Assembly: GCA_949841045.1 (NCBI GenBank) | Contig: CATKXS010000001.1 | Span: 60,717 to 124,716, forward strand | DNA: 64,000 bases | Source: an uncultured Clostridia bacterium | GTDB taxonomy: Bacteria > Bacillota > Clostridia > Christensenellales > UBA1242 | Direction: 5' to 3' | In this document: positions 876-57,200 of the stretch, piece by piece | Layout: every line of letters begins with the position of its first letter | How positions within the stretch are numbered: position 1 is the stretch's first letter | Notes under the pieces: generated by a model | The model's database searches: none | The model's input: only the letters and a program-made list of their open reading frames with translations | Told to the model about the DNA's origin: nothing | Program-made: the position numbers and the translations under genes

Positions 876-944
876 ATGAAAAAGTTTATTGTAAGTTTAC
901 TTGGCATTTTTCTGCTCTTTGGTGCGTCAGTTTTAACAGCTTGT
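876..944 (+). other. lipoprotein signal peptide with lipobox (L-T-A-C) of giant ORF 1
   Basis: MKKFIVSLLGIFLLFGASVLTAC has a KK n-region, a hydrophobic core, and LTAC with Cys23 encoded by TGT 942-944. Confidence 0.75.
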
Positions 945-15900: not shown

Positions 15901-18900
15901 GGGTAATGAATACATTCTATCAAGGTGAAAAGGCAATTTATTCTACGCTACATCTTTGGCAGAATCTCCCTGATATAAATATTTGGTTAGGTGCTATAGT
16001 TAGTTGGCTTTATCTCTTTGATTGGACACAGACTTGGATTGGCCGTCAAGTTGTATTTACAACTACATTTCAAATTCCTAAAGTGAATGAAGTTGCATAT
16101 GATAGCAATTTTGATGAGGTTACTGATGCTAATTTTAATTCTGACAAACCAAATCCAAATGAATGTAGCGAGTCCAACGTTGCACCTGTTAATACACTTT
16201 CAACAGATGCTCTTGGTCTTGCAATAGGATATCAGATAACTTTCCATAGTAAATACAAAGTTCAACAAAATAAATTTACTTACGCTATTAAGTCTGGTAC
16301 AGCTAATTATAGTAATTTTAATGATTTGATAAATGCTAAATGGAGTGACAAAAAGAATGAATTAGATGAAGGAATTTATGAGGATGGTGATTCTGTATCT
16401 TCAGAAAATGTTATTTCTCAAGCTTATAGCTCGTCATTGCCAGAAAATTTATACTATAAAGAGAGTTATGAAAGGAGACCGTATGAATATGACGAATTTA
16501 ATAAGTCTTTTAACTGGAACAATTTATGTTCAAATGAATATAAAGAAGGTGAAGTTAAAGTCGTTACCGATTACGATAGTTCAACAATGCGGAATATAAA
16601 AGAAAACACAAGAAGTGTGGAAGAAGAAGGCGAGATAAACAGTTTGAAAATTGCTGGTAACCCTTATTATATTCTTGACCATAATAATGTAACTTCAGTT
16701 CTAAATTCTGGTATTTTTATATCTAAACCTCAAAAAGTAAGATTTTCTTCTGATAAATTGCCTTATATAGCCAATAAGGGCCTATATTCAATGGAAATTA
16801 AGGGGCATAATGAATTAAATCCAATCATCACCTCAGTATCTCAAGAAGGTAATGAAACTATTGTTGAGTACAAAGTGAGCAGTGCTGAAGAAATTAACAT
16901 AGCTAATTGCGAAGTTATTATTTCAATGAGTTATGAGCAAGAAGTAACTTTTGATTTAAGTTCTTTAAAATATAGTTATTATGATGATTATTCAGTTGGA
17001 ATTGAAATTGGCTTGATGGATTATAGCGTTCTTGACCAATACACTTTATATTATGAAAATAGTAAAGAGCCGGATGGATTTGCAGTTAAAAACAATGTCA
17101 TTAGAATTCGCAAAGAAGGCGCAAGCAATGTTTCCGATACTGATGATGCAAACGAAAACTATATCTATCTATTCTATGATGAAGCTGAAGGTAAATTTGT
17201 TTATGTTCCTAATGCTGGTTTAATCACTTCTACAGGTAAAAAGATTGAAAAAATTAATAAGTCAAATTATTCTTTACGCGGTGATGAAAACTTTATAGAG
17301 AATGTAAAGAATATTATAAATGAACTTAAAGGAAAAACTTATTATTCAAGAGTTACTAAACAATCTTCAACATATGCAAGCTTGTTCTCAAATAATCAAT
17401 CATTATTTACTAGATACTATGAAAGCAATGGAAATTATACCGCTGGAGAGAGCAGTAAGGAAAATGCTGTAATTAAGTATGGTTCTACTGTGTCTAATGT
17501 AATTGGCGCTATGATTTATGAAAATGACGGATATGTTGTGACACTTGACAATAATGGAAAAGATATTATAGCGTTGAATGGCACAACTCCAGTAATGAGT
17601 TATAATAGTAGTACCGACTTATGGTATAGTGATATTAATTCAATAGAAGGCATGAGTGCTCAAGTTGTAGGCAATAAACTTAAGATATTGTCTTCAGAAA
17701 GCACAGAAGCACAAAATAAGATTCAAACATATCTTAATAAACTTATGTTCATCTCTGATGATTGGTCTGAGAAAGAATTTATTAGTAAATATGAAAATAT
17801 TAGAACTTCCATCAGATATAATATTCCAGAGAATGAATCGTATGGCGTTGATTTTATAAGAACAATCAAACATGACTGGATATATAACGCTGATAATAAG
17901 TTTACATTCAAAGAAATTAATAATCGTCTTTATATCGCAGTTGATAGTGATTATACTGCTTTAACAAAATATAGTTTAGGCGGTGTCACAGTAAGCTATG
18001 GCGAAGAAAATATTGAAATTACAGATAGCTATACTTCTAAGATAACAAGCTTCAGTCTTAGGTCGCCGGGACGCGTTAGTGTAGAAATATCATTCTCAAA
18101 AAATGGAACGACTCACACATTTAAGAATTTTACAAGCTCTAATAACCATAGTGCAAGTTTTGATAAAGAAATGAGTGATGCTATTACAGACGGTATCTTC
18201 AATATGCAGTTGAAATATTATCCATCATATACAACTAATTCAGTGAGTGTTGATGAGGGGTATAATTATCACTTAGTACTTGAAAAGAATGGACAAATAT
18301 ACTATGTTGAAGCTTCATTTGATGAAGAATTGATTAATAATGCACAATCTGGAATTACTGCTACAATTGATTCTGTTTCAAAAATTTATACAAGTTCGAA
18401 TGGAAATCTTCTTATAAGAGCGGAGTATCTTGAAAGTAAAACACAAGAAGGAGCAGTAAGCAAAACAAAGGTTTATTCTATAAATGGAACTAAAGTTTTA
18501 ACTATAAATGAAACTGAAGGTGAATTAGAATATACTGTTTATTATGATTCTGACGGTAATCTTCTCTATACTCCTGCAGTAGATAAAGATGGAAATCCTA
18601 TTAAAGATGAACACGGAAATGATGTGCCTCCTGTTGAGGGTGATACTACTGAAAGCAAGCCAAGTAATATTTATTACCGAAGCAACATATTCAGACCTGG
18701 AACTGCTAACCCAGAAGTTATTGACCTAATAGGAGATGGATACATTAGCAGTGTTGATGACCTGCATGACCCTTTGATTTTTAATGAATCACTCAAGATG
18801 ATTAGTGATGAACATACAGAAACGATAAAACCAGCTTCTTCAGAAGGTGCGGGTGATGGAGTGTCTGTAAAAGTTGCAAGAAGATATGTTTATCTTGAAG

Positions 18901-32260: not shown

Positions 32261-32372
32261 ATTAAACATTTTTTTTACTTTGTTTGTAATTAAACATTTT
32301 TTTTACATTGTTTGTAATTAAACATTTTTTTTACATTGTTTGTAATTAAGCATTTTTTTTACTTTGTTTGTA
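32261..32372. repeat. 28-bp tandem repeat x4 derived from the nrdD 3' end
   Basis: Units start at 32261, 32289, 32317 and 32345 and read ATTAAACATTTTTTTTAC(A/T)TTGTTTGTA; unit 4 has AAGC. The next period (32373-) is the real nrdD stop and last codons, ATTAAACATTGTGTTTTACACGG. Confidence 0.9.
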
Positions 32373-32373
32373 A

Positions 32374-34692
32374 TTAAACATTGTGTTTTACACGGTCATG
32401 TTCTTCAGCACGTTTTCCGTTATTGAATCTGTCAAGAGTCCCAACAAGGTAACCAGTAATTCTTCTGATTCTTTCAAATTCGCCTTTGCCGTCATGCTCA
32501 TCTCTTCCACAGTAAGGGCAGTGGTCGCCGATAATTCCATTATATCCGCAAACAGGGTCTCTGTCAATTGGGTGGTTGATTGCACCATAACCAATTCCTT
32601 TTTCTTTCATATGTCTGATAATTCTCTCAAATGCATCAAGGTTTTGAGATGGGTCGCCATCAAGTTCAATATATGAAATGTGACCGCCATTGCAAAGTGC
32701 ATGGAATGGAGCTTCAAGGTCAACTTTCTTTTCAGCGCTGATTGGATAGTATACAGGGACGTGGAAGCTGTTTGTATAATAATCTCTGTCAGTAATTCCT
32801 TTGATAACGCCATATTTGTTTTTGTCAATTTTGATAAATCTTCCGCTTAAGCCTTCGGCAGGAGTTGCGATAACTGAGAAGTTGAGTTTGTATTTATCTG
32901 CCATTTTGTCAGCGAAGTCACGCATGTATTTCACAATGTCGTAACCAATCTGCCATGATTTTTCGCTTTCGCCATGGTGTTTACCAGTAAGAGCAACAAG
33001 TGCTTCAGCAAGTCCGATAAAACCATAGGTGAGTGTACCATGTTTAAGAATTTCAGCAACTGAGTCGCCTCTTCCAAGTTTATCAGAGTCAATCCAAACA
33101 CCTTGTCCCATAAGGAAAGGATAGTTGTAAACATGTTTAGATTGTTGAATTTTAAATCTATCTAGAAGCTGGTCAGTAACAAGCTCAAGCATTTCATCGA
33201 GGCGAGCATAAAACTTCTTCAAATCGCCTTTAGCATCAATTGCAATACGAGGAAGGTTGATTGAAGTGAATGAAAGATTTCCTCTTCCGTATGTAATAGA
33301 CCTTTCTGGGTCATATACGTTTGCCATAACTCTTGTACGGCAACCCATATATGCGACTTCTGTCTCAGGGTGACCCTCTTTATAATATTCAAGGTTGAAT
33401 GGAGCGTCAATGAATGAGAAGTTAGGGAACATTCTCTTAGCAGAGCATGCAATAGCCTCTTTGAATAAGTCATAGTTAGGGTCGCCTGGGTTGTAGTTGA
33501 CGCCTTCCTTAACTTTGAAGATTGAGATAGGGAATATAGGAGTTTCTCCATTTCCAAGACCTTCTTCAGTTGCTTTAAGGAAATTTCTGATAACCATTCT
33601 TCCTTCTGGTGAGGTGTCTGTACCAAAGTTCAATGATGAGAATGGCACTTGAGCACCAGCACGAGAGTGCATTGTGTTGAGGTTATGAACAAGCGCTTCC
33701 ATAGCTTGGTGAGTTGCGCTGTCTGTTTCTTTAAGACTTGTTTTAGTTGCAAAGTCTTTAATCTTATTATATAGTTCATCATTAATATCGCTAAATGCCC
33801 CTCTTTCAGCTTTGTCATAAGCTTTGTTTTCTGCAAGCGTAGGGTAAACGCCTTTTTCATTTTCGATATTTTTAATTTTTTCGCAAACTTCTTCTTCAGT
33901 TAACGCTCCTGCCTCTTTGAGAACATAAGCTTTTGCGAAGTTTGTTCTATAAATCTTTTTGTATGTCTTCATAACGCCAGGTGCACACCCAAAGTCAAAG
34001 TTTGGTACGCTTTGTCCGCCATGTTGGTCATTTTGGTTAGCTTGAATGGCGATGCAGACAAGGGCAGCGTAAGTTCTGATGTCGTTAGGTTCTCTTATGT
34101 AGCCATGTCCTGTGTGAAAACCGCCTTTGAAAAGACTTAATACGTCAATTTGGCAACAAGTTTCAGTGAGAGTGTAGAAATCAAAGTCGTGAATATGAAT
34201 GTCTCCACTTTGGTGAGCTTTTGCCTGCTCTGGTGCAACAATAGCTTTTGTGAAATAGTTTTTTGCCGATTCTGAACCAAATTTAAGCATAACCCCCATT
34301 GGTGTATCACCATCAATGTTTGCGTTTTCACGTTTAAGGTCAACGTCTTTTGCATCACTGTTGTTGATTTTATCAAAAGTTTTCATCAAATTGGAATTAA
34401 GTTCTCTTGCAATGTTACGTTTGTTTCTATAAAGTATGTAAGCTTTTGCAACGTCATCGTGACCTTTTTTCATAAGCACACTTTCAACAATGTCTTGAAT
34501 TTCTTCAACTGTTGGAACAGCGCCGTCCTGATATTTTTTATCAAGTTCGTCTGCAACCGCGCTAGCAAGTTTGTGAGCAAGCTTAAGTTCACGGTCTCCA
34601 ACTGCATTCATTGCTTTAGAAATGGCAGTTTCAATCTTTTCAAGGTCGAAGGCTGTAAGTCTTCCGTCACGTTTCATAATGTTTTTTACCAT
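32374..34692 (-). CDS. nrdD: anaerobic ribonucleoside-triphosphate reductase
   Basis: I trimmed the track ORF to ATG 34692, which has an AAAGGAG RBS. It has an ATP-cone N-terminus (VKNIMKRDGRLTAFDLEKIETAISKA), a C-terminal Zn site (CGYNG...CPYCG) and the glycyl-radical motif RRITGYL. Confidence 0.95.
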   Translation of the reverse strand: MVKNIMKRDGRLTAFDLEKIETAISKAMNAVGDRELKLAHKLASAVADELDKKYQDGAVPTVEEIQDIVESVLMKKGHDDVAKAYILYRNKRNIARELNSNLMKTFDKINNSDAKDVDLKRENANIDGDTPMGVMLKFGSESAKNYFTKAIVAPEQAKAHQSGDIHIHDFDFYTLTETCCQIDVLSLFKGGFHTGHGYIREPNDIRTYAALVCIAIQANQNDQHGGQSVPNFDFGCAPGVMKTYKKIYRTNFAKAYVLKEAGALTEEEVCEKIKNIENEKGVYPTLAENKAYDKAERGAFSDINDELYNKIKDFATKTSLKETDSATHQAMEALVHNLNTMHSRAGAQVPFSSLNFGTDTSPEGRMVIRNFLKATEEGLGNGETPIFPISIFKVKEGVNYNPGDPNYDLFKEAIACSAKRMFPNFSFIDAPFNLEYYKEGHPETEVAYMGCRTRVMANVYDPERSITYGRGNLSFTSINLPRIAIDAKGDLKKFYARLDEMLELVTDQLLDRFKIQQSKHVYNYPFLMGQGVWIDSDKLGRGDSVAEILKHGTLTYGFIGLAEALVALTGKHHGESEKSWQIGYDIVKYMRDFADKMADKYKLNFSVIATPAEGLSGRFIKIDKNKYGVIKGITDRDYYTNSFHVPVYYPISAEKKVDLEAPFHALCNGGHISYIELDGDPSQNLDAFERIIRHMKEKGIGYGAINHPIDRDPVCGYNGIIGDHCPYCGRDEHDGKGEFERIRRITGYLVGTLDRFNNGKRAEEHDRVKHNV

Positions 34693-38524: not shown

Positions 38525-39169
38525 ATGAGAGAGAAAACTTTGCTCGAAAAGGCAATTGAAGAGAAGAAAGCTGAGTCAGAAGTTGTTACTGAAAAAGTAA
38601 AATCTGAACCTGTCGTAGAAAAGCAAGTGAAAGAAGTGGAAACGAAAAAAGTATTTTCGTCAGCCACCTTTCCAGCGATTGAACTTGAAAAACTTCGCAG
38701 GAAATATCAAAGCGAAGAAGATGAAGAGTTAGACAAGATTGAAGTTAGCAAGTTTTCTCAAGTAGTAGAAAAGCCTAATTATGATACAATGCAGACGCTT
38801 ACTGAGGTCGAACGAAAAAAGATTTTTAAAGTAGAAGGGGGCGAGGAGGCGAATAAGCCTAAACAAAACAAGTTTAAGATTTTTATAATATCTCTTCTTA
38901 TTGCGCTGTTTGGTGTTTGGGGAATTATAAATCTTGCGACAATTGATAATGTTTCAAGTCAAATTTCCAACTTGACAACGCAGTATGAACTTAACCTTGC
39001 AAATTATCTTAAAAATCTTTATACTCTTGATGCGACAAACTCAGAGAATATGAACAATCTCTTTGAGACAATTCCTGAAGAGGAAACACTTCCTAATGTT
39101 ATCAAGGATAAATCAAACGGGTTCGACAGATTTTGCAATTTCATTTCAGGCTTATTTGGAGCGAATTAG
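38525..39169 (+). CDS. FtsL-like bitopic cell-division protein with a long K/E-rich N-terminal extension (214 aa)
   Basis: It occupies the slot between rsmH and the class B PBP. It has a single TM (IFIISLLIALFGVWGIINLATI) followed by a short coiled-coil-like segment, and an AGGAGGTG RBS. Its last five codons and stop lie inside the 66-nt repeat element. Confidence 0.55.
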   Translation: MREKTLLEKAIEEKKAESEVVTEKVKSEPVVEKQVKEVETKKVFSSATFPAIELEKLRRKYQSEEDEELDKIEVSKFSQVVEKPNYDTMQTLTEVERKKIFKVEGGEEANKPKQNKFKIFIISLLIALFGVWGIINLATIDNVSSQISNLTTQYELNLANYLKNLYTLDATNSENMNNLFETIPEEETLPNVIKDKSNGFDRFCNFISGLFGAN

Positions 39170-39221
39170 TCGCTGTACGAACAATCGTTCAAGTGTTCGT
39201 ACACCAATTAATTTGGTGGAG
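39155..39221 (+). repeat. 66-nt repeat element, copy A (contains CGAAC-N4-GTTC)
   Basis: TTTGGAGCGAATTAGTCGCTGTACGAACAATCGTTCAAGTGTTCGTACACCAATTAATTTGGTGGAG is about 84 percent identical to 45519-45584. It can form the hairpins AGCGA/TCGCT and GTACGAACA/TGTTCGTAC. Confidence 0.85.
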
Positions 39222-39276
39222 CAACTTAGCTAATGTGTAAACATGTGTTTAGTGTGTTCACTCGCCAAATATTTGT

Positions 39277-41166
39277 GTGGAGGTTAACTTGCAAAAAGCC
39301 TATTCATTATTTTCTTTAAAAAAGAGGATATTAGCAGTACTTCTGGTAATATCCTTTATTTTTTGTTCGCTAATAGTCAGACTTTTTGTCATTCAAATTA
39401 TAAATGGAAAAAGTTTGCAGTCACGTGCGACCGACCAGTGGACTAGAGACCTTTCAATCGTTGCGCCTCGCGGGACAATCTATGATAGAACAGGCTCTAC
39501 TCTTGCTGTGAGTTATACCACTTATAATGTCTATGTCAGAGGACGAGAAGTCATAGATAAGTCTGAAATTTCTGTTCATTTATCTCAAATATTAGATTTA
39601 TCATTCGAAAGTGTTTACACGAAATTAACCAAGAAAAATGCCAGCGAAGTTTTGATTAAAATGCAGATTGAAGGTGATAAAGCGGAAGAGATTTATAGAC
39701 TCGGTCTTCCAGGCGTTTACCTTGCGGAAAACTCAAATAGATATTATCCTTATGGAAATCTTCTTTCTCAGGTGCTTGGGTTTATAAGTGTTGATAATGC
39801 TGGACAGACGGGAATTGAGGCCTATTATAATGATTATCTAAAGGGTAAAGATGGTTATAGTTATGTTCAAAGCGACCTACAGGGAAAGGAAATAGGTGGT
39901 TCGCTCAGATACTATGTTGGCGCAACTGCAGGCAAAGATTTAAACCTTACAATTGATAGTAAAATGCAACTTATCGTTGAACAAGCGCTGGAAAAAATAA
40001 TGGTGGAACAAAAAGCAAAAAGTGCAACGGGTATTATATTAGATGCCAAGACTGGCGAAGTGCTATCGCTTTCAACCAAGCCAAGTTTTGATTTAAACGA
40101 AGTACCTCGTGATGACCTCGAAGCACTATTTGAACAAAGTAAAGTTAAACCTGCAACAGATATTTATGAGCCAGGTTCAACTTTTAAAATTCTTACCGTT
40201 GCAGCAGCACTCGAGGAGGGGCTTACAAACCTTGAAGATAGGTTCTATTGTCCAGGATACCGCGTTATAGATGGCATTAGAATAAAGTGTTGGAGAACTA
40301 TCGGACATGGTAGTCAGACCCTTTCTGAAGCCTTTGCAAACTCATGTAACTGCTGTTTTATGGACCTCGCTTTAAGGCTTGGTGTCGACAAGTTTTATAG
40401 TTATATGGAAAAATTTGGTCTTGGCAAGAAAACAGGACTAGATGTGACAGGAGAGGCAAGTGGAATTTTAATGGCGAAAAAACTGGTTAAAAATGTTGAC
40501 CTTGCTCGTATGGGCTTTGGTCATGCTATTGCTCTTACTCCAATGCAACTTCTGTCAGCTGTTTCATCAATTGTCAATGGTGGAACATTCAATAGTCCGC
40601 ATTTAACACAAACTCAGACCTCTTCACAAATGAGAAAACAAAGCGGTATTATAAGCGCAAAAACCTCTCAAACTGTCAATGGACTTCTCGAATTTGCCGA
40701 AAATAAAACTGGGAAATATACCTTTGTAGAAGGCTATAATGTAGGTGGAAAGACGGGTACAGCTCAGAAATATAAGGAGACAGGCGGAATTGACAGCGGA
40801 AAGTACGTTTCCAGTTTTGTTGGGACTTATCCAGCAGACAACCCACAATATATTGTGTTTGTCATGGTAGACGAGCCAAGTAATGGTGCATATTATGGAA
40901 GTATTGTTGCTGCTCCTTATGGCAAAGAAATATTTTTAAACCTATTTGATTATCTTGACGAAAAGAAACAAGATGAGAGTGCTGTGGTCGAATATGTGCC
41001 AATGCCTGACCTTGTTGGAAAAAGCCTTGCCGAATGTGCGGTTATTTTAAAGGAAATCGGACTTGAATATGAACTTGACGGAGAAGGTGAATATATAGAA
41101 AGACAACTTCCACCAATCGGAACTTCACTTGCAAAAGGCTCAGTAATCCTCTTGGTTACAACTTGA
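39277..41166 (+). CDS. class B penicillin-binding protein (FtsI/PBP2B type) with a C-terminal PASTA domain
   Basis: It has an N-terminal TM, the transpeptidase motifs STFK, SCN and KTGT, and a PASTA-like C-terminus (VPMPDLVGKSLAECAVILKEIGLEYEL). The track start is GTG 39277. TTG 39289 sits 5 nt after GGAGG (39279-39283) and may be the real start. The stop is TGA 41164-41166. Confidence 0.9.
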   Translation: MEVNLQKAYSLFSLKKRILAVLLVISFIFCSLIVRLFVIQIINGKSLQSRATDQWTRDLSIVAPRGTIYDRTGSTLAVSYTTYNVYVRGREVIDKSEISVHLSQILDLSFESVYTKLTKKNASEVLIKMQIEGDKAEEIYRLGLPGVYLAENSNRYYPYGNLLSQVLGFISVDNAGQTGIEAYYNDYLKGKDGYSYVQSDLQGKEIGGSLRYYVGATAGKDLNLTIDSKMQLIVEQALEKIMVEQKAKSATGIILDAKTGEVLSLSTKPSFDLNEVPRDDLEALFEQSKVKPATDIYEPGSTFKILTVAAALEEGLTNLEDRFYCPGYRVIDGIRIKCWRTIGHGSQTLSEAFANSCNCCFMDLALRLGVDKFYSYMEKFGLGKKTGLDVTGEASGILMAKKLVKNVDLARMGFGHAIALTPMQLLSAVSSIVNGGTFNSPHLTQTQTSSQMRKQSGIISAKTSQTVNGLLEFAENKTGKYTFVEGYNVGGKTGTAQKYKETGGIDSGKYVSSFVGTYPADNPQYIVFVMVDEPSNGAYYGSIVAAPYGKEIFLNLFDYLDEKKQDESAVVEYVPMPDLVGKSLAECAVILKEIGLEYELDGEGEYIERQLPPIGTSLAKGSVILLVTT

Positions 41167-41473
41167 GGAGGCTTAGGCAGATTATTGCGGAACAATTTTG
41201 ACTGGTGATTTCAACCTGCTTAACTATAAAATGTGGCTAAGCCTCTTGCGGAACAGAAAAAACTAAGATTGTATATACTTCAAAAAACAAAGTGGCTAAG
41301 CCACACGATAAAAAGCGAATAATACGCGCGGATAATCTGCGGAATGAAACGAGTTTAAAATAGTAATATACTTTACGATAAAAAAGCAGATAATCTGCAA
41401 AAAGCGGATAATCTGTGGAACAGAATAAATTTAATATTGAAATATACTTTACGATAAAAAGCGGATAATCCGC
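41167..41473. repeat. palindrome-rich degenerate tandem repeat region
   Basis: It contains 13-bp odd-centred palindromes: GTGGCTAAGCCAC 41292-41304, GCGGATAATCTGC 41328-41340, GCAGATAATCTGC 41386-41398, GCGGATAATCTGT 41404-41416 and GCGGATAATCCGC 41461-41473. ATATACTT(T)ACGATAAAAAGC units begin at 41273, 41366 and 41442. T(G/C)(C/T)GGAA(C/T) follows four of the motifs. GAGGCTTAG (41168-41176) is complementary to CTAAGCCTC (41237-41245). Confidence 0.85.
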
Positions 41474-41502
41474 TTGGTTAAAAATTAAAAATATAGTATA
41501 AT
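41474..41502 (+). promoter_or_regulatory. promoter placed for a leaderless mRNA of the first YugP-like gene
   Basis: TTGGTT (41474-41479), a 17-nt spacer, then TATAAT (41497-41502), then atagtt and ATG 41509. No SD is present. Confidence 0.45.
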
Positions 41503-42231: not shown

Positions 42232-42262
42232 ACTTTAGATAAAACTAAAATTTGGAGGGAAT

Positions 42263-44570: not shown

Positions 44571-44770
44571 AAAAACAAAAAATCCCTACTGCTAACTAAG
44601 CAATAGGGGCGAGAGGATGCCTCACGCTGTTCCACCCTAATTCATAACTTAGACTTCAAATAAACTTCGCATTTCTTCATTTATTTTCAGTTTTAAGTCA
44701 CCTTCATTATGTCTTTACGCCGACACGCGTTAAGTTCGGGAGTTGCCAATTCCGTCATCACTATAAAAGT
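44571..44770 (-). promoter_or_regulatory. T-box riboswitch leader (glycine) with terminator
   Basis: The reverse strand carries the T-box sequence AATTAGGGTGGAACAGCGTGAGG (44642-44620). It also carries the terminator CCCTATTGCTTAGTTAGCAGTAGGG (44608-44584) followed by ATTTTTTGTTTTT, and a 5' UGAUGA GA-motif. The bulge UGGA fits the U73 discriminator of bacterial tRNA-Gly. Candidate specifier codons are GGC (44721-44719) or GGU (44702-44700); I cannot choose between them. Confidence 0.8.
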
Positions 44771-44803: not shown

Positions 44804-45376
44804 TTACTTTATTATTTCAAAATCATTGTAATCATTTATATTTTGATACTTAGGGTCATAATTTGTCTTAATTGTATCATTTGCTTCTTGTTTTTCTTTA
44901 AATTCGGCACGCTTTGCCTTTTTATCCATAGAACCTGCCACACTAAAAACAGTGATTAATGTTATTAATGGAGGAGGCAGGGCAATCCCCAGTGCTGTTC
45001 CGAGAGTTTTAAGAATGTGTGCATCGTAAAAATTGTTGTATTTTTCCTTTTCTTCGGCTGATGCATAATTATCAAAATAGTCATTTTTATCTTTGAGATT
45101 TTCGGTAAGAGAATCGTGTTCGTTTTGAGTAATACTTCCATTATTTAAAGATTCATCATATTCAGCAGTTTTTTCTTCAACATATTCATAATAATTTGTT
45201 TCAGAATGTAAAAAATCGTCAGCTATTTTGTTGCCAATATGAGAAACGGTTATTGTGCTTGCTCCGGTAAGTAATATACTAGCAAAAAGAACGCCCATTA
45301 ATATTGAAGGGCTATCAAGTCGTTTAGCCCATTTTTTGTAATATGCTGATGATTTAAGTTGAGAAAGTGGTTTCAT
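44804..45376 (-). CDS. hypothetical membrane protein (190 aa, two TM segments)
   Basis: It has a TAGGAG RBS and the TM segments ILMGVLFASILLTGASTITV and LGIALPPPLITLITVFSVAG. The loop between them is acidic and Tyr/Asn-rich. Confidence 0.7.
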   Translation of the reverse strand: MKPLSQLKSSAYYKKWAKRLDSPSILMGVLFASILLTGASTITVSHIGNKIADDFLHSETNYYEYVEEKTAEYDESLNNGSITQNEHDSLTENLKDKNDYFDNYASAEEKEKYNNFYDAHILKTLGTALGIALPPPLITLITVFSVAGSMDKKAKRAEFKEKQEANDTIKTNYDPKYQNINDYNDFEIIK

Positions 45377-45464: not shown

Positions 45465-45493
45465 TTTACATATTGATTTTTTTGTGATAGAAT
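45465..45493 (+). promoter_or_regulatory. candidate extended -10 promoter upstream of repeat copy B
   Basis: TTTACA (45465-45470), a 17-nt spacer, then TAGAAT (45488-45493) preceded by TGa. Confidence 0.45.
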
Positions 45494-45518
45494 AAGTCCT
45501 ATAGGAGCATTTATCCCT

Positions 45519-45584
45519 TTTGGAGCGACTTAGTCGCTATGCGAACATTCGTTCAAATGTTCATACACTAAATGTTTGGTGGAG
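45519..45584 (+). repeat. 66-nt repeat element, copy B (contains CGAAC-N4-GTTC), forming the 5' UTR of the 191-aa gene
   Basis: TTTGGAGCGACTTAGTCGCTATGCGAACATTCGTTCAAATGTTCATACACTAAATGTTTGGTGGAG. Its GGTGGAGG end serves as the SD for ATG 45590. Confidence 0.85.
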
Positions 45585-45589
45585 GAAAA

Positions 45590-46165
45590 ATGATAAGAGA
45601 GTTTAAATCTTTAGATGGGATTTCTACGCTGAAGCTTGAATTTTCCAAAGTAGATTTATTGGGGACAGAAAATATTAAAGAAACGCTTTCTGATATAATT
45701 GACGGAAACATTTTCTATGCGAAAAAAGATATAAGCGTCTATGTTTCTAACGCAAGACAAAGGGAGAGTATTGACTCTAGACAAAGATTTAGTTTGAATG
45801 GCAAAGTATACCTATTGACAGAAGAAAAATATAAAGTTACCGAAATGGACGAAGAGGCTTATTCAAAAGTAATTCATTATACAGACGGGCAAGAGGCTCT
45901 CGTAAAGGGTGGAAGATTCGACCAAGATTACGAGCTTGAGGTGAAAGATTGGGATTTGTTTAAACCAATTGATACACCAAAAAAGTTTTCTACCATTACA
46001 AAAAATGTGTATTTCAAAACGCCTTGGGGTGAGCGTGTGTTTGCTCCAAAAGGTAGCAAAATTTGCATTGAATATGCTGAGACGCGTGACTTTTTCATTG
46101 TGACAAATTCACTTTTCAAAGTTGCCTATCAAAAAATGGGTGACACTTATAAATCTTTTGATTAA
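45590..46165 (+). CDS. hypothetical protein (191 aa)
   Basis: I trimmed the track ORF to ATG 45590, which lies 5 nt after GGAGG. It looks soluble and I recognise no motif. Confidence 0.7.
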   Translation: MIREFKSLDGISTLKLEFSKVDLLGTENIKETLSDIIDGNIFYAKKDISVYVSNARQRESIDSRQRFSLNGKVYLLTEEKYKVTEMDEEAYSKVIHYTDGQEALVKGGRFDQDYELEVKDWDLFKPIDTPKKFSTITKNVYFKTPWGERVFAPKGSKICIEYAETRDFFIVTNSLFKVAYQKMGDTYKSFD

Positions 46166-46218: not shown

Positions 46219-46413
46219 GGGTATTATACCCTTTTTTATTATATGAAATATCTTTTTTTGTATACTTTTCAACGTATTCCTGAGGGCATTATGCCCTTTT
46301 TATTATGTGAAATAATTTTATTTTGAATATTTTTCGACATATTCTTGAGGGCATTATGCCCATTTTATTAAACAAATATTGTTATTTAGAATACTTTTCA
46401 ACGTATTCTTGGT
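46219..46413. repeat. 65-bp tandem repeat x3, each unit a terminator hairpin plus a copy of the ABC-F gene 3' end
   Basis: The hairpins are GGGTATTATACCC 46219-46231, GGGCATTATGCCC 46284-46296 and GGGCATTATGCCC 46349-46361. Each is followed by a T-run on the + strand. The period is exactly 65 bp, and the fourth period is the real coding end of the reverse-strand ABC-F gene. Confidence 0.9.
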
Positions 46414-47962
46414 ATGTGCCTGTAAAATCTATAATTTTATTTTCATCGACAATATCTATAATTCTGTTTGCAACAGTCTCAATAATTTCTTGGTCATGTG
46501 TTGCAAATAGAAGGTTGCCTCTGAAGTTTAACATTCCTTTATTGAGGGCAGTGATAGATTCAAGGTCGAGGTGGTTTGTTGGCTCGTCGAGGAGAACGAG
46601 GTTGCCTTGTTCAAGCATCATTTTTGCGAGCATACAGCGTACGCGTTCACCACCAGAAAGCACGTTTGCAGGCTTGAGGTTTTCTTCGCCAGTGAAGAGC
46701 ATTCTTCCAAGCCAACTTCTTATATATGTTTCGTTTTGGTCAGTTGAAAATTGTCTGAGCCAGTCAACAATTGAAGATGTATTTCCTTCAAAATATTCAT
46801 TGTTATTTTGAGGTAAATTTGTCATTTTTATTGTCTTTCCGACGAACACTTGACCGTGGTCTGGTTTTTCATTTCCGAGGATAATATTGAATAAAGTGGT
46901 TAAAATTTGGCTATTTTTTGCAAAAAAAGCCACTTTTTGCCCCTTTTCTATGTTAAAACTGAGATTTTTGAACATTCCAGACTTGGTAAGGTGGTCAACT
47001 TTCAAAATTTCTTTTCCAATCTCTTGAGTGTATTCAAAGTTGATATAAGGATACTTCCTTGAAGAAGGTTTAATGTCTTCAATAGTAAGTCTTTCGAGTT
47101 CACGTTTACGGCTTGTAGCCTGCTTTGATTTTGAGGCATTTGCAGAGAAACGGGCAATGAATTCTTTAAGTTCTTTGGCGCGTTGTTCTGCCTTTTTATT
47201 TTGGTCTTTCATCTGTCTTAAAATAAGTTGACTTGACTCATACCAGAAATCGTAGTTTCCGATGAACATGTTGATTTTGCCATAGTCAACGTCGCAAATG
47301 TGAGTGCAGACTTTGTTTAAAAAGTGACGGTTGTGGGATACGATAATGACAATGTTTTCAAAGTCTAAGAGATACTCTTCAAGCCAGCGAGAGGTTTTAA
47401 AGTCGAGGTTGTTTGTAGGTTCGTCCAAGATAAGAATATCAGGATTTCCAAAAAGTGCTTGAGCAAGCAAAATTTTAACTTTGACTTTTGCGTCAAGACT
47501 TCCCATTGTCTGTTCAAAGAGAGCCTCTTCAATTCCTAAGTTTTGAAGTAAACTTTTTGCTTCGCTTTCAGCTTCCCAGCCACCAAGCTCAGCAAATTCA
47601 GTTTCAAGTTCTCCTGCGCGAATTCCGTCAGCTTCGGTAAAGTCCTCTTTCATATAGAGTTCATCTTTTTCCTTTTGAACCTGCATAAGTCTTTTGTGGC
47701 CAAGTAGGACGGTGTTTAAAACTGTTTCATTGTCGTATGCGTTTTGGTTTTGGGCAAGAACAGACATGCGTTCACCAGGCGTGATAAAAATTTCACCGGT
47801 GTTAGGTTCGATTTCCCCAGTGATTATTTTGAGAAGGGTGGATTTTCCAGCGCCATTTGCGCCGATAACTCCATAACAATTACCTTTTGTAAATTTAAGG
47901 TTAACGTCTTTATAAAGCACTCGTCCACCAAAGGCGAGTGAGATGTTTGATACTTGTAACAT
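46382..47962 (-). CDS. ABC-F family ATPase (YbiT/YkpA-like, soluble tandem-NBD protein)
   Basis: 526 aa with two NBDs and no TM domain. NBD1 has Walker A GANGAGKST, and there is a charged inter-domain linker. NBD2 has the signature LSGGERVR and Walker B LVLLDEPTNHLD. The NBD2 Walker A is degenerate (AKNSQILTT). It has an AAGGAG RBS. Confidence 0.9.
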   Translation of the reverse strand: MLQVSNISLAFGGRVLYKDVNLKFTKGNCYGVIGANGAGKSTLLKIITGEIEPNTGEIFITPGERMSVLAQNQNAYDNETVLNTVLLGHKRLMQVQKEKDELYMKEDFTEADGIRAGELETEFAELGGWEAESEAKSLLQNLGIEEALFEQTMGSLDAKVKVKILLAQALFGNPDILILDEPTNNLDFKTSRWLEEYLLDFENIVIIVSHNRHFLNKVCTHICDVDYGKINMFIGNYDFWYESSQLILRQMKDQNKKAEQRAKELKEFIARFSANASKSKQATSRKRELERLTIEDIKPSSRKYPYINFEYTQEIGKEILKVDHLTKSGMFKNLSFNIEKGQKVAFFAKNSQILTTLFNIILGNEKPDHGQVFVGKTIKMTNLPQNNNEYFEGNTSSIVDWLRQFSTDQNETYIRSWLGRMLFTGEENLKPANVLSGGERVRCMLAKMMLEQGNLVLLDEPTNHLDLESITALNKGMLNFRGNLLFATHDQEIIETVANRIIDIVDENKIIDFTGTYQEYVEKYSK

Positions 47963-48204: not shown

Positions 48205-48251
48205 ATAAATAGTACATTTTGATTTAACCAAAAAAAGAAATGAGGTGTCAA

Positions 48252-51200
48252 ATGAGAAAAAAGAATAGCGAAAAGAAGAAAGACTCAAAGTTGAGGATTA
48301 AATGGAAAACCTGGATGACGGTTGTGACCGTTATTGCGGTTGTATTTTTAATCAGCGGAGCAACCGTGCTTGGCGTATATTTGTCAGGTGGTTTTAACGA
48401 AAAGGTTGTTTATCCAGAGAGCATTGAATTCGATTATGGAAATAACCGCTTTGTAAATAATCAACTTGAAGTAGAGGAAGACTTTACACTTACTATCACC
48501 ACGCCAACGAATCAAGTCACTCGTGATACTTTGACATTGTCTTTTGCAGGTGATGGAATTATTGAATCGAGAGATGGCAAAATTTCAAATGGTTCTATCG
48601 AAGTCCCTCAAACTGTTACCATTGGCAGACCTTTCACTGTGCACCTTTTGACTAAAAACTTGGTTGATGAGAATGGGACGCCAGTTCTTGATTTAAATGG
48701 AAATTACATAGACTGGATTGCAGGCGGCATTTCAACACTTGTAGCTCAGTCGCAAAACATTCAAATTCCTTCAATAAGCGTTCGTATCGCAGTAGACGTT
48801 CCTGTCTATGACACTCAAACTATTATTTACAATTCTCTAGGTGAAGAGGTTACTCAGGTTGTTAAAAATGAAAGTTTTACTGTTAAGACAAAATTCTTGC
48901 CTGCAAACAGCGAATATATGTACAGTGATGACCTAAGTAGTAAGGCTGAAAACGAAAAACGCAAAAAGACCTCTTTCTATGAAGCAGTAAGCACAGAAAA
49001 TCTTACAACTGTCTATGACAGCAAAACTGAAGTTCATTTTGTGGCAAAGAATGTCATTGATGACGGAATTACAATCAACAATTATACTTTTAAAAATGCA
49101 ATCAGTCAGCTTAACTATGAGGCAGAAAATGAAGAGACGACAAATGGCGAACTTTATTATAACGATGCTTTGAGATATTTAAGTGACAATTCAAGCATAG
49201 CAAAACTTTCACGTGCGGTTGTTTCAATCGGAGATGAAAGTGTAGGCAACTTTACAGTTACAAAAGAAGGGCAAAACCTTTCAATGAAAGTGGAAGAGCC
49301 ATTAAAGTTATATCTCAACAATTATCCTTATGAGGCACTCGCCGATTATCTTGGTATAAATATCTATTCAACCTCAGGAAGAATTCTTGATAACCTTCTT
49401 CCAAACATAGTTTTAAGTTTTGATTATAACGGCAAAGACCCAACACTCGGTGATGACAAAATACTTGAAATCAGCGGTGGAGAGGTGATTGACTTTGAAG
49501 GCACGCGTTACTATAAACCTTTCTCAGAGGGAATAAACAACTTCCGCTATTCTTACTGGAACATTTCAGCTAAGGAAGAGGGGGATGTAACAGTATTTAT
49601 TTCACTTCTTTTGAATGATGACACAACTCTTTTTGAGCAGGTGGCTGGCACTCCATTTAGAAGAAATGTTAGACTAACAATAAAAAAACATGAGGAGCTT
49701 CCTCCAGTTTGGCTTGACCAAACTAGAGAAGATGTACTTCTTGACTATACTGTTGTAGAAGGTGTAAGCACGTTGGCTCCTAAGACAATCGACCTTGGAA
49801 GCAAGGTGGAAGTCCCAAGCGAGAATATTTACAAAGATTACGTATTCTTTGCTTGGTTTGGAAATGGACAAATTGAAGACTACACTGAGAAAGCAAATTC
49901 TATTCTAAGAAATGGTTATATTAGAGAAAGGTCAAAAATTTATGAAACAACAAGTGGAAGGCTTACACTTTTCGCACTTGACGGAACGAGCATAACTCTA
50001 TATGATACGGGTGAATTTTCAATTTATGTTGCCACTATCAGACCAGAACTTACTGATGACGGCTATTATCAAATCGTTGAACTAGCAAGTGGGTCAAAAA
50101 GTGTTGTTGTAAAAAAATCACTTTACACAGACTCAGTAGAGGAGTTTACACTTGATGTTGCAGATTTCCCTTCGATGGGAGCAAATGAAATCAGCATAAA
50201 TCAGGGCAGTGAATCAACCTTTGGAATAAGTTTCATTGTTGGTGCAACATCTGTACCAGTTTTCAAAGATGAATTCCAAAAAGGATTTATGACTCCAAAA
50301 ATTTTGGATATTGCAGGAAACGATATTACAGATTACTTCAACTTTAATGAAGGCACTCTTACTACTGGTGACGAATCCGAAAATGCAACTTTAGAATATA
50401 GAGTAAGCGCAAAACCTTCTGTTCAACTTGAACAAACATTAGGTGTTTATCTTGGTTATGTTGCACTTAATTATAATAACGGCGAAAATGACATTACTTG
50501 GGAAATGCCTCTAGGAAGCGACCAAAGAATAAATGTTTATAAACCACAAGCTTCACTTATTGAACTTAGTGACAATGAGATTAAAAATGCTTTGCTTGGT
50601 GGCGGAGATATAGAAGTTGAACAATACTTAACTTCGGCCGGCGTATTTAATACAACGATAGTTGTTTCACTTCCAAATGGTAATGAAAGAAGATTCTCAA
50701 ATGTTAGCGATTTTGTAAATGCTTTTGTAGGGGTTGATGGTGCTCTTATAAAAATTACCGACCAAAAATCCAAAACAGACACTTTGACTGGGCAATGGAA
50801 TTTTGTTATAAGCGGAGATGAGACAGGCGCTATTGAACTCTCTTCTGATGGCAAGTCATTTACATTTAAGAATACCGATTCTGAAGATTTTGTTCCCGTT
50901 TCACTTCTTCTTCAAAGTACAGACGGAAACGCAACCGTAAAGGGGAATAATAACCAAAATCTCGTTATAAACTTTAAAGTAAATTCAACTGGAATTACAA
51001 AAATAGCGTATGATAACGAAACATTAAAAACATATAATTCAATCCTTTCAGCACCAACTGAAGAGACAGCAAAAGCTGTTGTAAGTAAATATGGCGCAAA
51101 AGGAAATGGCTCAGAGGTTATCACCTTAAAGAGTTTAATTAATTTCTATTGCATGGATAATAGTGGCAATGATATGGAATATACAAGAGTTTCATTTAAA

Positions 51201-54200
51201 TTCAATCCACAATATTATTCAAGTGCAAATCTTTCAGATACTCAAATTGTTGACCTTTATGGCCCAGACGGCATGCTTACGCTCTATAATGGCGACAATG
51301 TTTTGAGCTTTAGCGGAGATTATTCTGCTGAGAATATTAGAAGTACTCTTGCTTCAGCAATAATTTCAAATATTAAAATCAACAAAAACTTTGCTTCTTA
51401 TCATACTGTTCAACTTATGGTTACAGATGAAAGTGGTGCAGTAAATACAAGCTTTGACCTTGAACTTCGTCCAAATTATGTAGTAACTAGAGAAAATTAT
51501 TCTCAATATGCTGGCTCAAACTTTAGGCTTGCAAACACTGTTTCAAACCTAAATTTAGATGGCATACAAGATAGAATTGATACTCTATTCGACCCAAATG
51601 CAACTTATTATGTAGTGCTTGATAATATTGCTGGAAGTTATAAACTTGTTAAAAGCACGCAAGCAGTTATTGGAGCTATAGGAACATACAATCCTGGCAG
51701 TTCAACAATTACATTTGCAGACTTCTGGGATACTGAGCAAAAGATTTTCACAGTTCAATTCCAACCAGAAGGAGAAAACACATTTGCTCTTAATCATTCA
51801 ATAACCTTTACAATCAACCGCGACCTCGTGGTAACAGACGAAAAGGGTGTGTTCTTCGTACTTGGTCAAGCAATGGAAATTTCTGACTTTGCAAAGATTA
51901 CAAGACATGACGGAAGTCCAATAAACAACTTGAGCGTATCTTATACCTTTGAAGATTATCTTATGATGAATGGCTCAAGAGTTGTAAGAAAGGAAGACAG
52001 TGATTTCTTCTTTGATTATAATCAGATTTCACTCCAAACAAAACTTACAATTTCAAATGGAAACACTATATTTGATGAATTTAATGTTACAATTAAACTT
52101 TATGACACAGATGACGTTTACAATTTCCTTGCAAGTAAATTTACAATTGACACAAACAATGAGAGCATGAAAGGTCTTTCAGCTCGCAGCCAAATTGTCA
52201 ATAATGGAAAAGAAGATGTAAATTATATTGTTTTCCCAGCAAACGTTGGTGCAAGCTGGAATGTTGCAAACATTGACGATTACAAACTTCAACCAATGAT
52301 GGTTGACCATGACAACAATAAACTGCAGAACTTCTATGAAGTTGTAAATACTCGCATCACATTCAAAATGCAAAATCTTCACATTCTTCTCACTGGCTTA
52401 AATGATAATACAAGATATATAGCTGTCAGACTTCAAGCAAACAATGTTGTACTTGCGACAATGAATATTCCTGTCATCATTTCTCAAATTGGATTTGACA
52501 GTGTTGTTTATGAAAATGGAGAAATTGCTGATAATAGAGTTCTTGAAACAGCGCTCACTCGTCCTGAAACATTGATAGCAAATGGTATCTATAATGAGAT
52601 TACAGCTGGTCAACTTTCAGAAATATTGACTCAATATGATATGTCAGTTTATAGAAAAGAAAGTGAAAATAATGGAAGTGGCGAGGCCGAAGTTATTTGG
52701 AATGGAAATATAGAGAAGGGCGGTCTTTACATGCTTAAAGACTTCACTCCTTCATTTGAGACATATCTTCTTGACAATAACTATGATAATTATGCAGGTT
52801 TAGTAAAGACAAGACAAGTTACTAGAGAAAATGCAAGTCTTTTACTTAACCACTTAAATGATAACGTATCGGACGCTTATATCGCATTTATTTTTACAAT
52901 TAATAAGAGTGGAAGTGGCAACAGCCAATCATTCTATTATGTATTGAAAGTTAAACCTGATGTTAAAGTGGAAAATTCTCTTTATGCTTATAATGGCAAT
53001 GTTGAATACATTAAAGGTCAAAGCGATTATAATAATGAAATTGACCTCGAAGCACTTTTCAATAATACGACATTAAATGAAGGGTTAAAGAGATTTATGG
53101 TAAGTAAAACTCTTACCATGCAGAGCAGTTATGAACTTGAACTTAACGTAACGACAAGAAGTAGCATAAGATTCACTTTTGGTGAAGATGAGATTTTAAG
53201 AAGTTATGGAGTGGGAACAGTTACTGTTGACTTAAATGATTATTTTAAAGGTGCACTAGTAGACGGCGCTGAAATTGAGATTACTATCATTGAAGGCGAT
53301 GCTACAATCAGCTACAAAGGCGTTAAAGTATTCAAAACACTTAAGTTTACAAATAAAGTCACATCAGTTGTGGTAGGTGAAAAGACTTACACAACTCAAG
53401 ACGCCTGGAAAGATACAATTGCTCTATCATTCTCAGACGATGGAAGAAAACTTATCTATAGACCTCTTATTACAAATAGAATTACATTTACAATTGAGCG
53501 AAGCTATATAGGTGGCGGTGAAGATGACCTCGCGGTCATTGGTGGAGTTCAAACCTTTACATTTATTCTCAATGATGACGAAGAAATTCTTGCAGTCAAC
53601 TTTGGAAATGAAGAAAGTACAGACTATGTAGTTGAAATCAAAAATGGTAGCATTTCAAGTTATGAAATGAATATAAACCTTATCAAGAAAGAAATGTCTG
53701 GCTCTACAATCGGAATTACTATTTACGATAGACTTAACATAAGTCTTATTAGTGGAGGCGAAAATGTAGCTGGATATACTTATGACAATTCTAGGGAGAG
53801 TCAGGGTAAATTTACTCTCAATCTTAAAAATTATATCAATTCTGACAAAAAAGTAGTGTTTGCAGTGTATACAGCTCAAGGCTATCTTGCAACTCTTACT
53901 TTTGAACTTAAAGCAAATGTTACTTATTATCCAAATGAAAGTACAACTACTCTCGAAGGTGGAAAAGATTATATCTTAAATACACAAGAATTTATGAAGC
54001 TTACTGTTCCTTCTAAAACTGAAGAGGGAAGAGAGGAAATTCTTACAAGTGGACACTTTAATATAACCGATGTAACAATCTCTGGCACTGGCAAAGACTT
54101 TGTCAAGATTAGCGGAAATAATATGGAAATTGCCGACCTTATTTCAGATAAAGAGGTTACAATTACTTATACAGTTACATTCACTTCTCTTGCTTCTGAA

Positions 54201-57200
54201 TTTGGAATTGAAGATTTGACATTCATTTTCTCTCAAACTTATGTTTTGAAACAAAATGTCAGTGCAAAGACTTCTGTCGCATCTTCAGTAGAAACAATCG
54301 CAGGACAAAATCATGTTATTGATACAACAAGTCTTTATAATATGATTACAGGAGAAAGTCTGCGCGATGACACCAAAATAAAAATTGAAGCTTCATCTTC
54401 AAGCCCAGCTTTTGGTGGAATTACAGATAATATTATATCGACAAACTATATTGCAAGCAGTGTAATGCTTGAACTTACATTAAACGTTTCAATTTCAAAC
54501 GATGATAAGACTTGGCAAAACTTTGCACTTTCTTATTCATTCGCAGTTTTACCTGCAGTAAAATTTGAGACAAATTATCCAATTCCAAACTCAAATGGAG
54601 AAATGGAATTTGAATATATTGAAAACGATTCAACTTTTGCAAACATTTTGACAAATTTCTTGTCAAATAATGCAATCTTTAGCGATAAGGCTCGTATTGA
54701 AGCATTTGAAGCAGTAACTGATAATGGAAAGGTAAGTTATCAAACCACTTCATCACCAATCACTGCTGAAAACTTAAGTATACTTGTTAACTCAAGAACA
54801 AACGCAACAGTGCTGGCTGATGGAAGAATTATTGGCGACAATGAACAAATTCCAAATGGAGCAGAAGTCAAATTCTCTCGCGGTTCAACCAGTGGAAATG
54901 ACGCAGTTGTAGAACTTGGAATTACTTACAAAGCGGTTTATATTACCTATAAAATCAAGATTATTAGCAATTCAATTACGCTTACTCCTCAATCGGTAAC
55001 AAACTATAGCCTCTCTGGTTCTTACACAGCTGAGGGCGGAAATGACACAGTATCTTATGAAAAGATATATATAGATAAGACTTCATCAAACAATATATTT
55101 GCTGGTGAAAGACTTGTTTATGCTCAGCTTAGCGATGTTATGGCAACTTATGCTAATGAATACTATTTCGTATTTAGAAAGGTTGTCGAAAGTGAAATTA
55201 ATGGCGACCAAGAAAGTGATGTCTACAATTATTACGCTTCTTATCCAATTTACATTGCTTCAAGTGACCAAAGTAATACTCGTTATTATGACCTTGGAAT
55301 TTCATTTGCAGGCAAGGAGTTTGTAGGTGCTTATGAAGCCTCATTATTTGAAAAGAGACAAATAAGCATCAATGGAGAAGAAAGGCAATTAAAAATTAAA
55401 GAAATAATTGTTTCAGAAAATGAACAACAAGTTGTTGAAAGTGACATTACATCAGAAGATAAACTTCCAGCAAACTTAGCTTATACTTTATTTAAACTTG
55501 ATGAAGAAAAGCCTATTGTTAAACTTGCAAATAGACTTCAACTCATCTATGGTGTTGACGAGCAGGGAGAAGATATTCTTGTAGATTATGAAAAATATTC
55601 TTACTTAGGCGAGTCACTTATTAAAGAGTTCAATCTTACTAAGGCAAACACAGTTCTCAACGAAATAAGAAAAGAGCCGGTTCAAATTACTCTTTCAAGA
55701 AATGACGGTTCTGGCAAAAGCCATAACTTTAGTGTAAACTATTATTATATGGCAAGCATTGATGTCGATGTGGAAGAAAAGGCGACAACCCTTGCAAATA
55801 CTGTACCAGTTGAAGTTAACAAAGAAGAGTCAAGTATAAATTCTCTTCTTGGAATCAAGCATCCTACAACAGGAAGAATAATTTCAGCTTCTGATTTTAC
55901 AATGGGTGATAGACTTACTTTCAATATAATCTATTCTTCTGTTGAGACTTTAAGGGGAGAAAATTCCTCTGTTGACGAAAATTATAGAGATATAGTTGAT
56001 TCATACTACACGAAATTGAAAATTAATTCTTTCAATCGCTATGTAGATGATAAAGGTATTGCTCCTACAGATGGTAAAAATATTTACCTATATAGAAGTG
56101 CGATAAGCAATTCAAGTGATTGCGTTTATGATTACAGTATAATGCCATTTGGTGCAAAAAACCTTGGTGATTATGTACTTGGTGAAATTGTTTATAGCGT
56201 AGGTGAATTTGAACTTAAATTCTATGTAGTATTCCATATCAGTCCAGACTATGTTGTTAAATTTAAGGGCAATGTTGAAAATTCAGTTACAGAAGCAGAT
56301 GGTGCAATAATTTCAAACTTTGGTGATAACCTTATTGAAACTATTGCTGAAACAAAACTTGATAATGGAAGTATTGTATATGAAGATTTCATCTTGACTG
56401 GTGAAAAGGGTGTTGTTTCAATAATTCATGATAACAGTACTGGCGAGAAGTATGAACAGGCAGTAAGAAACTTTAAGCTTTATATGCCTCTTAATACTAT
56501 TGTTGAATCAAGAACATATAATAAGCAGGATAATATAGAACAAAAGATATTCTATGATAATAATACTGCTGTAAACGCGAATTGGGAATACAACGAAGAG
56601 ACTTTAAGCTATGATTATAAACTTGCTCAAGTATCTCCATATACCGATGTGACATTCACAAAAGTCAAAGAAGTAATTTTCGCAGAACAATACTATATGA
56701 TTGAAGGCGTTGACCCTTACTATTATACTTACAGATTGTATTTCAAACTGGCGGTTACAAAGGGCACACCAAGAATCTTAGGAAGTATGTCAATTGTCGA
56801 AGATGAACTATTCGATTTTGGTGTTCAATATCAACAAGTGACAATGAATTCAGCGGGAAAACGTCAAGAAGATAGCAAAAATATTTATACTTACAATATG
56901 AATGCATCTTCTCTTCGTACGCCAGCTTCAACAGATGGAAATGTGAAACTTCTTAACTTCACAGGTATTGAAGCATGGGAATTTGACCTTGATTATACTA
57001 ACGAACATGTAAATGCAGTATTGAACTTGCCTTCAATCCTTGATTATAATACCGATGAAAAAACGGAAAATAAACAGGTTTATAAACCTGGTGCAACCGA
57101 GATTGATAATGGAGAATATGAGGAGGGTACAGGAAGAACCGGTCACATTGAAGTGCTTGACGGTGAGGAATACTTCAGTTATCCATCACTTGATTACATT

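Follow-up and report, generated by a model that had tools for sequence, protein, structure and literature searches.

How a single short sequence came to lie directly in front of two genes 6.4 kb apart, and what it does there, is the question raised by the stretch of DNA analysed in this work (64 kb, referred to below as the window; G+C content of 35%), which comes from an uncultured organism that is sparsely represented in public collections. The original prediction had left three answers side by side: an SOS operator, a structured cis-regulatory RNA, or a small dispersed repeat ending in a Shine-Dalgarno (SD) sequence. For the last of these, the part that holds is the repeat with its SD end, which fits the data best, whereas its dispersal is at present limited to two known loci. 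Sequence comparison leads us to propose that the element is a species-specific, hairpin-forming insertion unit of ~60 nt, similar in kind to MIRU, REP or MITE elements, which splits an SD sequence and regenerates it. We would give this reading a probability of about one half.

The repeat itself is well defined. Between 39155-39221 (copy A) and 45519-45585 (copy B), where a 66-nt element had been proposed, 57 of 68 aligned columns match (84%), and a profile HMM built from both copies scores each of them at E ~1e-20 to 1e-21. The profile search recovered only these two intact copies in the 64-kb window, and the sub-patterns GGAGCGANTTAGTCGCT and CGAACANTCGTTCAANTGTTC are likewise restricted to them over the 64 kb (shuffle expectation of 0.1 and 0.04, respectively). 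A third unit, A2, was detected by nhmmer at 39217-39282, abutting copy A (E = 0.0016; z ~3.4 in a shuffle control). It is a decayed unit, 62-65% identical to A1 (the intact unit of copy A) and to B, as judged from a hand alignment and from MAFFT. Site A is thus made of two tandem units, one intact and one decayed, and site B of a single unit. The repeat consensus reads CGAnTTAGTCGCT nTn CGAACAnTCGTTCAAnTGTTCnTACACnAA..TTTGGTGGAG.

Every unit falls exactly between TTTGGAG and the G of a TTTGGAGG ribosome-binding site and is co-oriented with transcription. The left flank consists of the same 7 nt, TTTGGAG, at both sites (39155-39161 and 45519-45525); A1 (39162-39221, 60 nt) and B (45526-45584, 59 nt) both end with TTTGGTGGAG, and A2 (39222-39282, 61 nt) ends with TTTGTGTGGAG, all of these features being on the plus strand. 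A substitute ...TGGAG is present at the 3' end of each unit, by which the downstream gene retains GGAGG at a normal spacing to its start codon. The window contains TTTGGAG 13 times, as expected by chance, and three of these occurrences are TTTGGAGG sites before start codons. Two of these three are occupied, the unoccupied SD being located at 42251-42258, before the second Zn-peptidase gene (start at 42263). At both sites, the units show no sequence difference in other assemblies of this species (two other assemblies in the case of unit B).

The strongest evidence for an insertion comes from site A. Its 5' neighbours are mraW and, in the position of FtsL, a gene for a membrane protein of 214 aa, and its 3' neighbour encodes a SpoVD/FtsI-type penicillin-binding protein (PBP) with one PASTA domain, as recognised by Pfam and NCBIfam matches. 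The protein in the FtsL position (38525-39169, plus strand) has itself no Pfam or NCBIfam assignment, and the C-terminus of its family (P0004-P0054) is strongly conserved as SNWFDR(F/I)CNF(I/L)xGLFGG. In this family, the codons of the last two glycines (GGA GGT) serve at the same time as SD for the PBP gene, whose start codon follows the stop after 3-5 nt. Our comparison covered 52 FtsL-like homologues, 51 of them from other species, together with the DNA at the junction of the FtsL-like and PBP genes from three other species (L002/L003, L012/L013 and L014/L015). L002/L003 represent a contig from one related species that is syntenic and has an identical gene order. Among the 51 proteins of other species, 50 end with ...GLFGG and one with ...SLFGR, and none with the GLFGAN ending, which is found in the 52 homologues only in this species (P0003 and a strain variant, P0055). 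At the DNA level, the relatives' junction reads GGCTTATTTGGAGGTTAA..TTG, with variants of the form GGCTT(A/G)TTTGGAGGTTA(A/G). In L002/L003, the FtsL-like gene ends with GGC TTG TTT GGA GGT TAG and is followed by CC and the TTG start of the PBP gene; the junction is GGCTTATTTGGAGGTTAAAATTTG in L012/L013 and GGCTTATAGGAGGTTAAACTTTG in L014/L015. Taken together, L002, L012/L013 and L014/L015 display empty sites of the type GGCTT(A/G)T(TT/A)GGAGGTTA(A/G)..TTG, without any spacer.

When positions 39162-39282 (121 nt) are removed from the window, what remains is GGCTTATTTGGAG joined to GTTAACTTG, in which GLFGG-stop is restored and GGAGG doubles as the SD of the PBP gene. Because the junctions of the relatives match the window with these positions deleted, the 121 nt are best seen as an insertion into TTTGGAG/G, an empty site that is found both in the DNA of relatives and in the C-termini of the proteins. 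The ancestral left half of the SD, TTTGGAG (39155-39161, plus strand), still encodes the last original codons of the FtsL-like gene, with the insertion point after G39161, and A1 supplies the alanine, the asparagine and the stop codon. Copy A thereby contains four terminal codons and the stop (TTT GGA GCG AAT TAG, or F-G-A-N-stop) rather than the five initially counted. The present SD of the PBP gene is rebuilt from the last five bases of A2 and the ancestral G39283. A PBP start 56 nt past copy A (GTG at 39277) had been assumed, but the alignment with relatives makes the TTG at 39289 the likelier one. From this comparison with empty sites, the PBP gene most likely starts at TTG 39289, with GGAGG at 39279-39283 as its SD (SD and start codon together spanning 39279-39291, plus strand). 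The insertion accounts for the odd GLFGAN C-terminus, where the family has GLFGG, and for the 121-nt interruption of an FtsL-PBP junction that is otherwise tightly coupled.

At site B, the unit lies in the leader of a gene coding for a 191-aa protein (gene B, 45590-46165, plus strand). A promoter-like sequence, TTTACA-17-TAGAAT with a TG extension, is located at 45465-45493 (plus strand) on the basis of a consensus match; it predicts a transcription start near 45500, and unit B would then span roughly +19 to +85 of a 5'UTR of ~90 nt. The unit is followed by the SD GGAGG (45581-45585), an AAAA spacer and the ATG at 45590 (45581-45592 as a whole, plus strand), and deleting 45526-45584 leaves TTTGGAGGAAAAATG, a canonical initiation region. 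The unit is absent from the 5'UTRs of gene-B homologues in three other species, where the promoter-to-start distance is ~20-60 nt, a comparison that for this site is one between non-alignable UTRs of distant relatives. In the syntenic contig of the related species, the product of gene B is 54% identical.

The product of gene B belongs to a family of 25 representatives at 50% clustering (exhaustive HMMER search), and the protein itself matches no Pfam or NCBIfam entry; the Pfam family PGDYG is touched by four of 22 family members. The confidence of its AlphaFold model was low at first (pLDDT of 35) and rose to 95.5 with 22 homologues. This model has no structural neighbour in the PDB and resembles only uncharacterised proteins of phages and giant viruses (TM of 0.5-0.6, E down to 5e-8). 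No link to cell-wall or SOS functions emerged from these structure and family data. On the upstream side of gene B, a predicted membrane protein of 190 aa without family assignment is encoded at 44804-45376 (minus strand), between the T-box/glyQS and the gene-B promoters; L002 and L018 have no gene at this position. A T-box leader precedes the glycine-tRNA ligase gene (44602-44767, minus strand; E = 4e-6), which is missed at the Rfam threshold because its 34 bits fall below the gathering score of 93, and a terminator-like hairpin is found nearby at 44608-44584.

Outside these two loci, the element was not encountered. No further copy was detected by the profile search in the remaining 57 kb of the window, and the profile had no match across the 118 kb of relatives' loci that were fetched for comparison. 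The P2 core of the element (see below), searched as an exact pattern against 185,579 GTDB species-representative genomes, among which the source genome does not figure, gave three chance matches only, in Pelagibacteraceae, Gastranaerophilales and Bacteroidales, with dissimilar flanks. JGI metagenomes, which likewise do not include the source genome, yielded no match to the P1 pattern and three chance matches to the P2 core; the P1 and P2 patterns had no match each in IMG/VR, and blastn against plasmids and phages gave none. As a proxy for extra copies, the peptide tails encoded by the three open frames of the unit were sought among 15 billion proteins, where none was found. The JGI contig Ga0224523_1003950 (L009, 2610-2870), retrieved solely through a common CGAACAATCGTTCAA core, carries an unrelated array of ~60-nt repeats, each with the palindrome GGAACAATCGTTCGATTGTTCC.

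Repeats of other kinds occupy several spacers of the window. Six to seven hairpins with GC stems and TAA loops (GCGGATAATCCGC, GCAGATAATCTGC, GTGGCTAAGCCAC and others), several of them followed by GGAACA, are located between the PBP and the first Zn-peptidase genes (41170-41480), along with a 76-nt direct repeat (41328-41384 and 41404-41460). These hairpins are terminator-like, with a T-run, on the minus strand, both flanking genes being on the plus strand. In the nrdD-nrdG intercistronic spacer (32261-32400, genes on the minus strand), the 28-nt unit ATTAAACATTTTTTTTACWTTGTTTGTA is repeated ~4.5 times in tandem, and three tandem units of ~65 nt, each with a terminator hairpin of the GGGCATTATGCCC type, lie between the convergent genes for the 191-aa protein and an ABC-F protein (46219-46434). 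Elsewhere, the window contains two giant open reading frames, one of 6470 aa (876-20288, plus strand) and one of 3483 aa (48240-58691, plus strand), the latter without Pfam domain but with a counterpart of 3558 aa in a related species.

Both copies are predicted to fold stably, with minimum free energy (MFE) z-scores of -3.4 (copy A) and -2.8 (copy B), into three adjacent hairpins and a 4-bp closing helix. The two hairpins proposed at the outset, AGCGA/TCGCT and, in copy A, GUACGAACA/UGUUCGUAC, are both recovered by RNA folding as P1 (AGCGA/UCGCU) and P2, the latter taking the form GAACAUU/AAUGUUC in copy B. P3 (ACCAA/UUGGU) had been overlooked and overlaps the terminal SD. The predicted hairpins extend over 39160-39174 (P1), 39175-39202 (P2) and 39203-39217 (P3) in A1, and over 45524-45538, 45543-45562 and 45566-45581, respectively, in unit B, all on the plus strand. 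The two substitutions of copy B that had been said to add pairs at the top of the second stem do so in the predicted folds; copy B additionally loses one C-G pair lower in this stem. The predicted MFE fold of copy B leaves no base of the gene-B SD unpaired, the pairing being provided by P3 and the 4-bp closing helix. Relative to A1 and B, both half-sites are altered together in A2 and pairing is kept (GAAC/GTTC to AAAC/GTTT). A covariation count over the three sequences is too small a sample for inference, the observed value being reached by 60 of 500 shuffles, and the three sequences fit a 9-bp P2 as well as an alternative GAAC/GTTC hairpin.

These folds bear directly on the two regulatory readings. 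If LexA were to bind the CGAAC-N4-GTTC box, PBP expression would be coupled to DNA damage, and the box is indeed present in both copies with 13 of the 14 positions of CGAACNNNNGTTCG, these being the sole sites of the window at no more than one mismatch. However, 11 of 100 shuffles reach two such matches, and the Cheo consensus (CGAACRNRYGTTYC, or CGAAC-N4-GTTCG) is not followed at the last base nor at position three of the N4 stretch. The consensus scan places the box at about +42 to +55 of the sole promoter-like site near copy B and reveals no promoter-like site within ~250 nt upstream of copy A (39025-39289), positions that do not suit an operator. As noted from the beginning, no box precedes uvrB (21191) or uvrA (23808), a result that holds at up to two mismatches and also counts against an SOS operator. 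The genes recA and lexA lie outside the window. At the loci compared, the box came with an insertion that is missing from every relative examined. The motif is moreover accounted for by hairpin P2, and the pair-preserving changes in A2 fit a hairpin rather than a protein-binding site. The promoter position, the uvr genes and the empty sites of relatives thus leave the proposed Cheo/LexA operator without support, and we regard it as very improbable. In the predicted fold, CGAAC-N4-GTTC is the 5' arm and loop of P2 and most probably no SOS operator, and more generally, a motif of this kind within a hairpin repeat should not be taken for an SOS box. Operators of WalR, CtsR, Rex, cre, CIRCE and BlaI/MecI were also compared by eye, through their consensus sequences, and none fits. 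A recently acquired cis-regulatory RNA is easier to entertain but still rather unlikely: the three-hairpin module would mask the SD, switch between open and closed states in response to a protein, a small RNA, a ligand or temperature, and place both the division PBP and the 191-aa protein under a common translational control. Such a role would agree with the sense orientation of both intact copies directly 5' of a start region, with their stable folds and the paired SD of copy B, with several differences between A1 and B that are structure-neutral or pair-adding, and with the far better preservation of A1 and B than of A2. It agrees poorly with the rest. Searches against Rfam 15 gave no match at the gathering score over the whole window and nothing relevant at E <= 10 for both loci; the element is missing upstream of the orthologous PBP genes and of gene-B homologues in every relative examined; and covariation over three sequences is uninformative. 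At site A, the SD of the intact unit is unused and the decayed A2 intervenes before the PBP gene. Finally, the PBP and gene B have no evident common function, the product of the latter resembling phage proteins. The structured RNA that had been suggested, as a conserved regulator, is borne out neither by Rfam nor by conservation upstream of orthologues.

How the units arrived is a separate matter, for which the main competitor of an insertion repeat is an origin without mobility. A 5'UTR segment could have been copied between the two loci by template switching or gene conversion, using the microhomologies of the SDs (TTTGGAG at the left junction, TGGAGG at the right one), and then duplicated locally in tandem, which would require no dedicated machinery and predict no further copies. 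The distance of only 6.4 kb between the loci, the lack of another copy in the window, junctions that both lie within 5-7 nt of common sequence, and the several small tandem duplications found elsewhere between genes of this genome are all in line with this scenario, as are the absence of terminal inverted repeats (TIRs), of a transposase among the window ORFs scanned, and of hits in the peptide-tail search. As to the TIRs, the ends CGAATTAG... and ...AATTTGG(TGGAG) match at 6-7 of 9 positions in A1 and at 3 of 9 in B. What makes this scenario rather unlikely in our view is that its source UTR is seen in no relative examined, and that A2 is 62-65% identical to the other units whereas A1 and B share 84%, a difference that implies two or more events at different times at sites of the same kind, provided that A2 is not simply the one unit free to decay. 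Since the divergence of A2 far exceeds that between A1 and B, at least two insertion events can be postulated; a process that recurs is then more plausible than an isolated accident, and a small repeat that is non-autonomous and prefers TTTGGAG SDs is favoured. The insertion repeat is also consistent with the identical left flanks and right ends, the empty sites, the tandem A2, the fixation within the species and the stable predicted folds. The counterpoint is that only three units at two loci support it and that one TTTGGAGG site (42251) is empty. Under the preferred reading of an insertion unit, copying into SD sites would have occurred at least twice, at different times, either through a trans-acting recombinase or transposase with a preference for TTTGGAG targets or through microhomology-guided copying. 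TGGAG borders every unit on both sides and is common to all sites, where it could represent a 5-bp duplication or a target together with an element-borne end. Regeneration of the SD would allow the insertion to survive within an essential cell-division operon. Once transcribed, the unit would fold into three short hairpins, of which the third and the short closing helix may pair with the SD, and its likely physiological effect would be confined to modest alterations of translation initiation or of mRNA stability for the PBP and 191-aa genes. A more specific and tentative version, which we consider possible but on balance unlikely, is that of a mobile 'Shine-Dalgarno-homing' miniature element, for which a recombinase or copying mechanism recognises TTTGGAG/G and the spare SD permits the colonisation of essential operons without polar damage.

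By analogy, the closest counterpart of the unit appears to be the MIRU of mycobacteria, and the wider class would be that of REP/BIME and BOX/RUP/SPRITE repeats. As described in the accounts consulted, MIRUs are sequences of 40-100 bp in the intercistronic spacers of operons, co-oriented, often in tandem and with ends overlapping the flanking genes; they are apparently mobile and insert at start codons with downstream expression preserved (PMC3184786, PMC12548453, citing Supply et al. 1997). The units described here are similarly short (59-61 nt) and co-oriented, with A1 and A2 in tandem at the FtsL-PBP junction, a translation-initiation site, where they provide the stop codon of the FtsL-like gene and the SD of the PBP gene. 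They differ from MIRUs in that unit B occupies a 5'UTR and not an intercistronic spacer, and in that they share no sequence similarity with them and reside in a low-GC (35%) uncultured bacterium rather than in Mycobacterium. In the same accounts, downstream expression is maintained in MIRUs by translational coupling between a short internal ORF and the start codon, whereas here the SD is split and a substitute is supplied; the open frames of the unit do not end at the start codon of the PBP gene or of gene B, and the MIRU type of coupling is thus not found. Some 40-50 loci are given there for MIRUs, against the two loci from which the present unit is known. The splitting and regeneration of the SD would therefore be a different way of keeping expression, so far documented at two loci.

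REP/BIME and the pneumococcal BOX/RUP/SPRITE elements are short, non-coding, hairpin-forming and species-restricted; they are co-transcribed with neighbouring genes and thought to affect mRNA structure, their copy numbers range from tens to hundreds, most copies being located 3' of genes or in spacers between convergent ones, and RUP and BOX possess TIRs and target-site duplications (PMC3184786, PMC3049150). Our unit shares the first four properties but lacks TIRs, its copies lie strictly at SD sites, and three units are present in the 64-kb window. Similarly, the MITE class is approached by the empty sites and not by the ends of the element, which lack TIRs. Palindrome-associated elements derived from IS200/IS605 have hairpins near both ends, a single orientation, and an insertion point 3' of a short specific sequence without clear duplication. 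The end hairpins, the single orientation and the insertion 3' of TTTGGAG recall this arrangement; by contrast, no Y1 transposase was seen among the window ORFs scanned, P1 is unlike P3, and the geometry of IS608 is not matched, as the left hairpin takes in two target bases. With the Cheo box recognised by LexA (DinR) in Bacillota, the unit has the CGAAC-N4-GTTC core in common, and it departs from it by its position relative to promoters, its absence at uvrBA, its lack of conservation in relatives and its location in a hairpin that is part of an inserted repeat.

To conclude, the significance of the element depends on how far it has spread. If it is limited to these two loci, it is a minor lineage-specific oddity. 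If the idea of an SD-homing element proved true, it would be the low-GC counterpart of the MIRU strategy, with SD regeneration in the place of translational coupling. If the unit is dispersed, it would offer a clear case of a selfish repeat shaped to enter and repair a ribosome-binding site, provide a second and mechanistically different example beside MIRUs, and explain the presence of such repeats inside essential operons.
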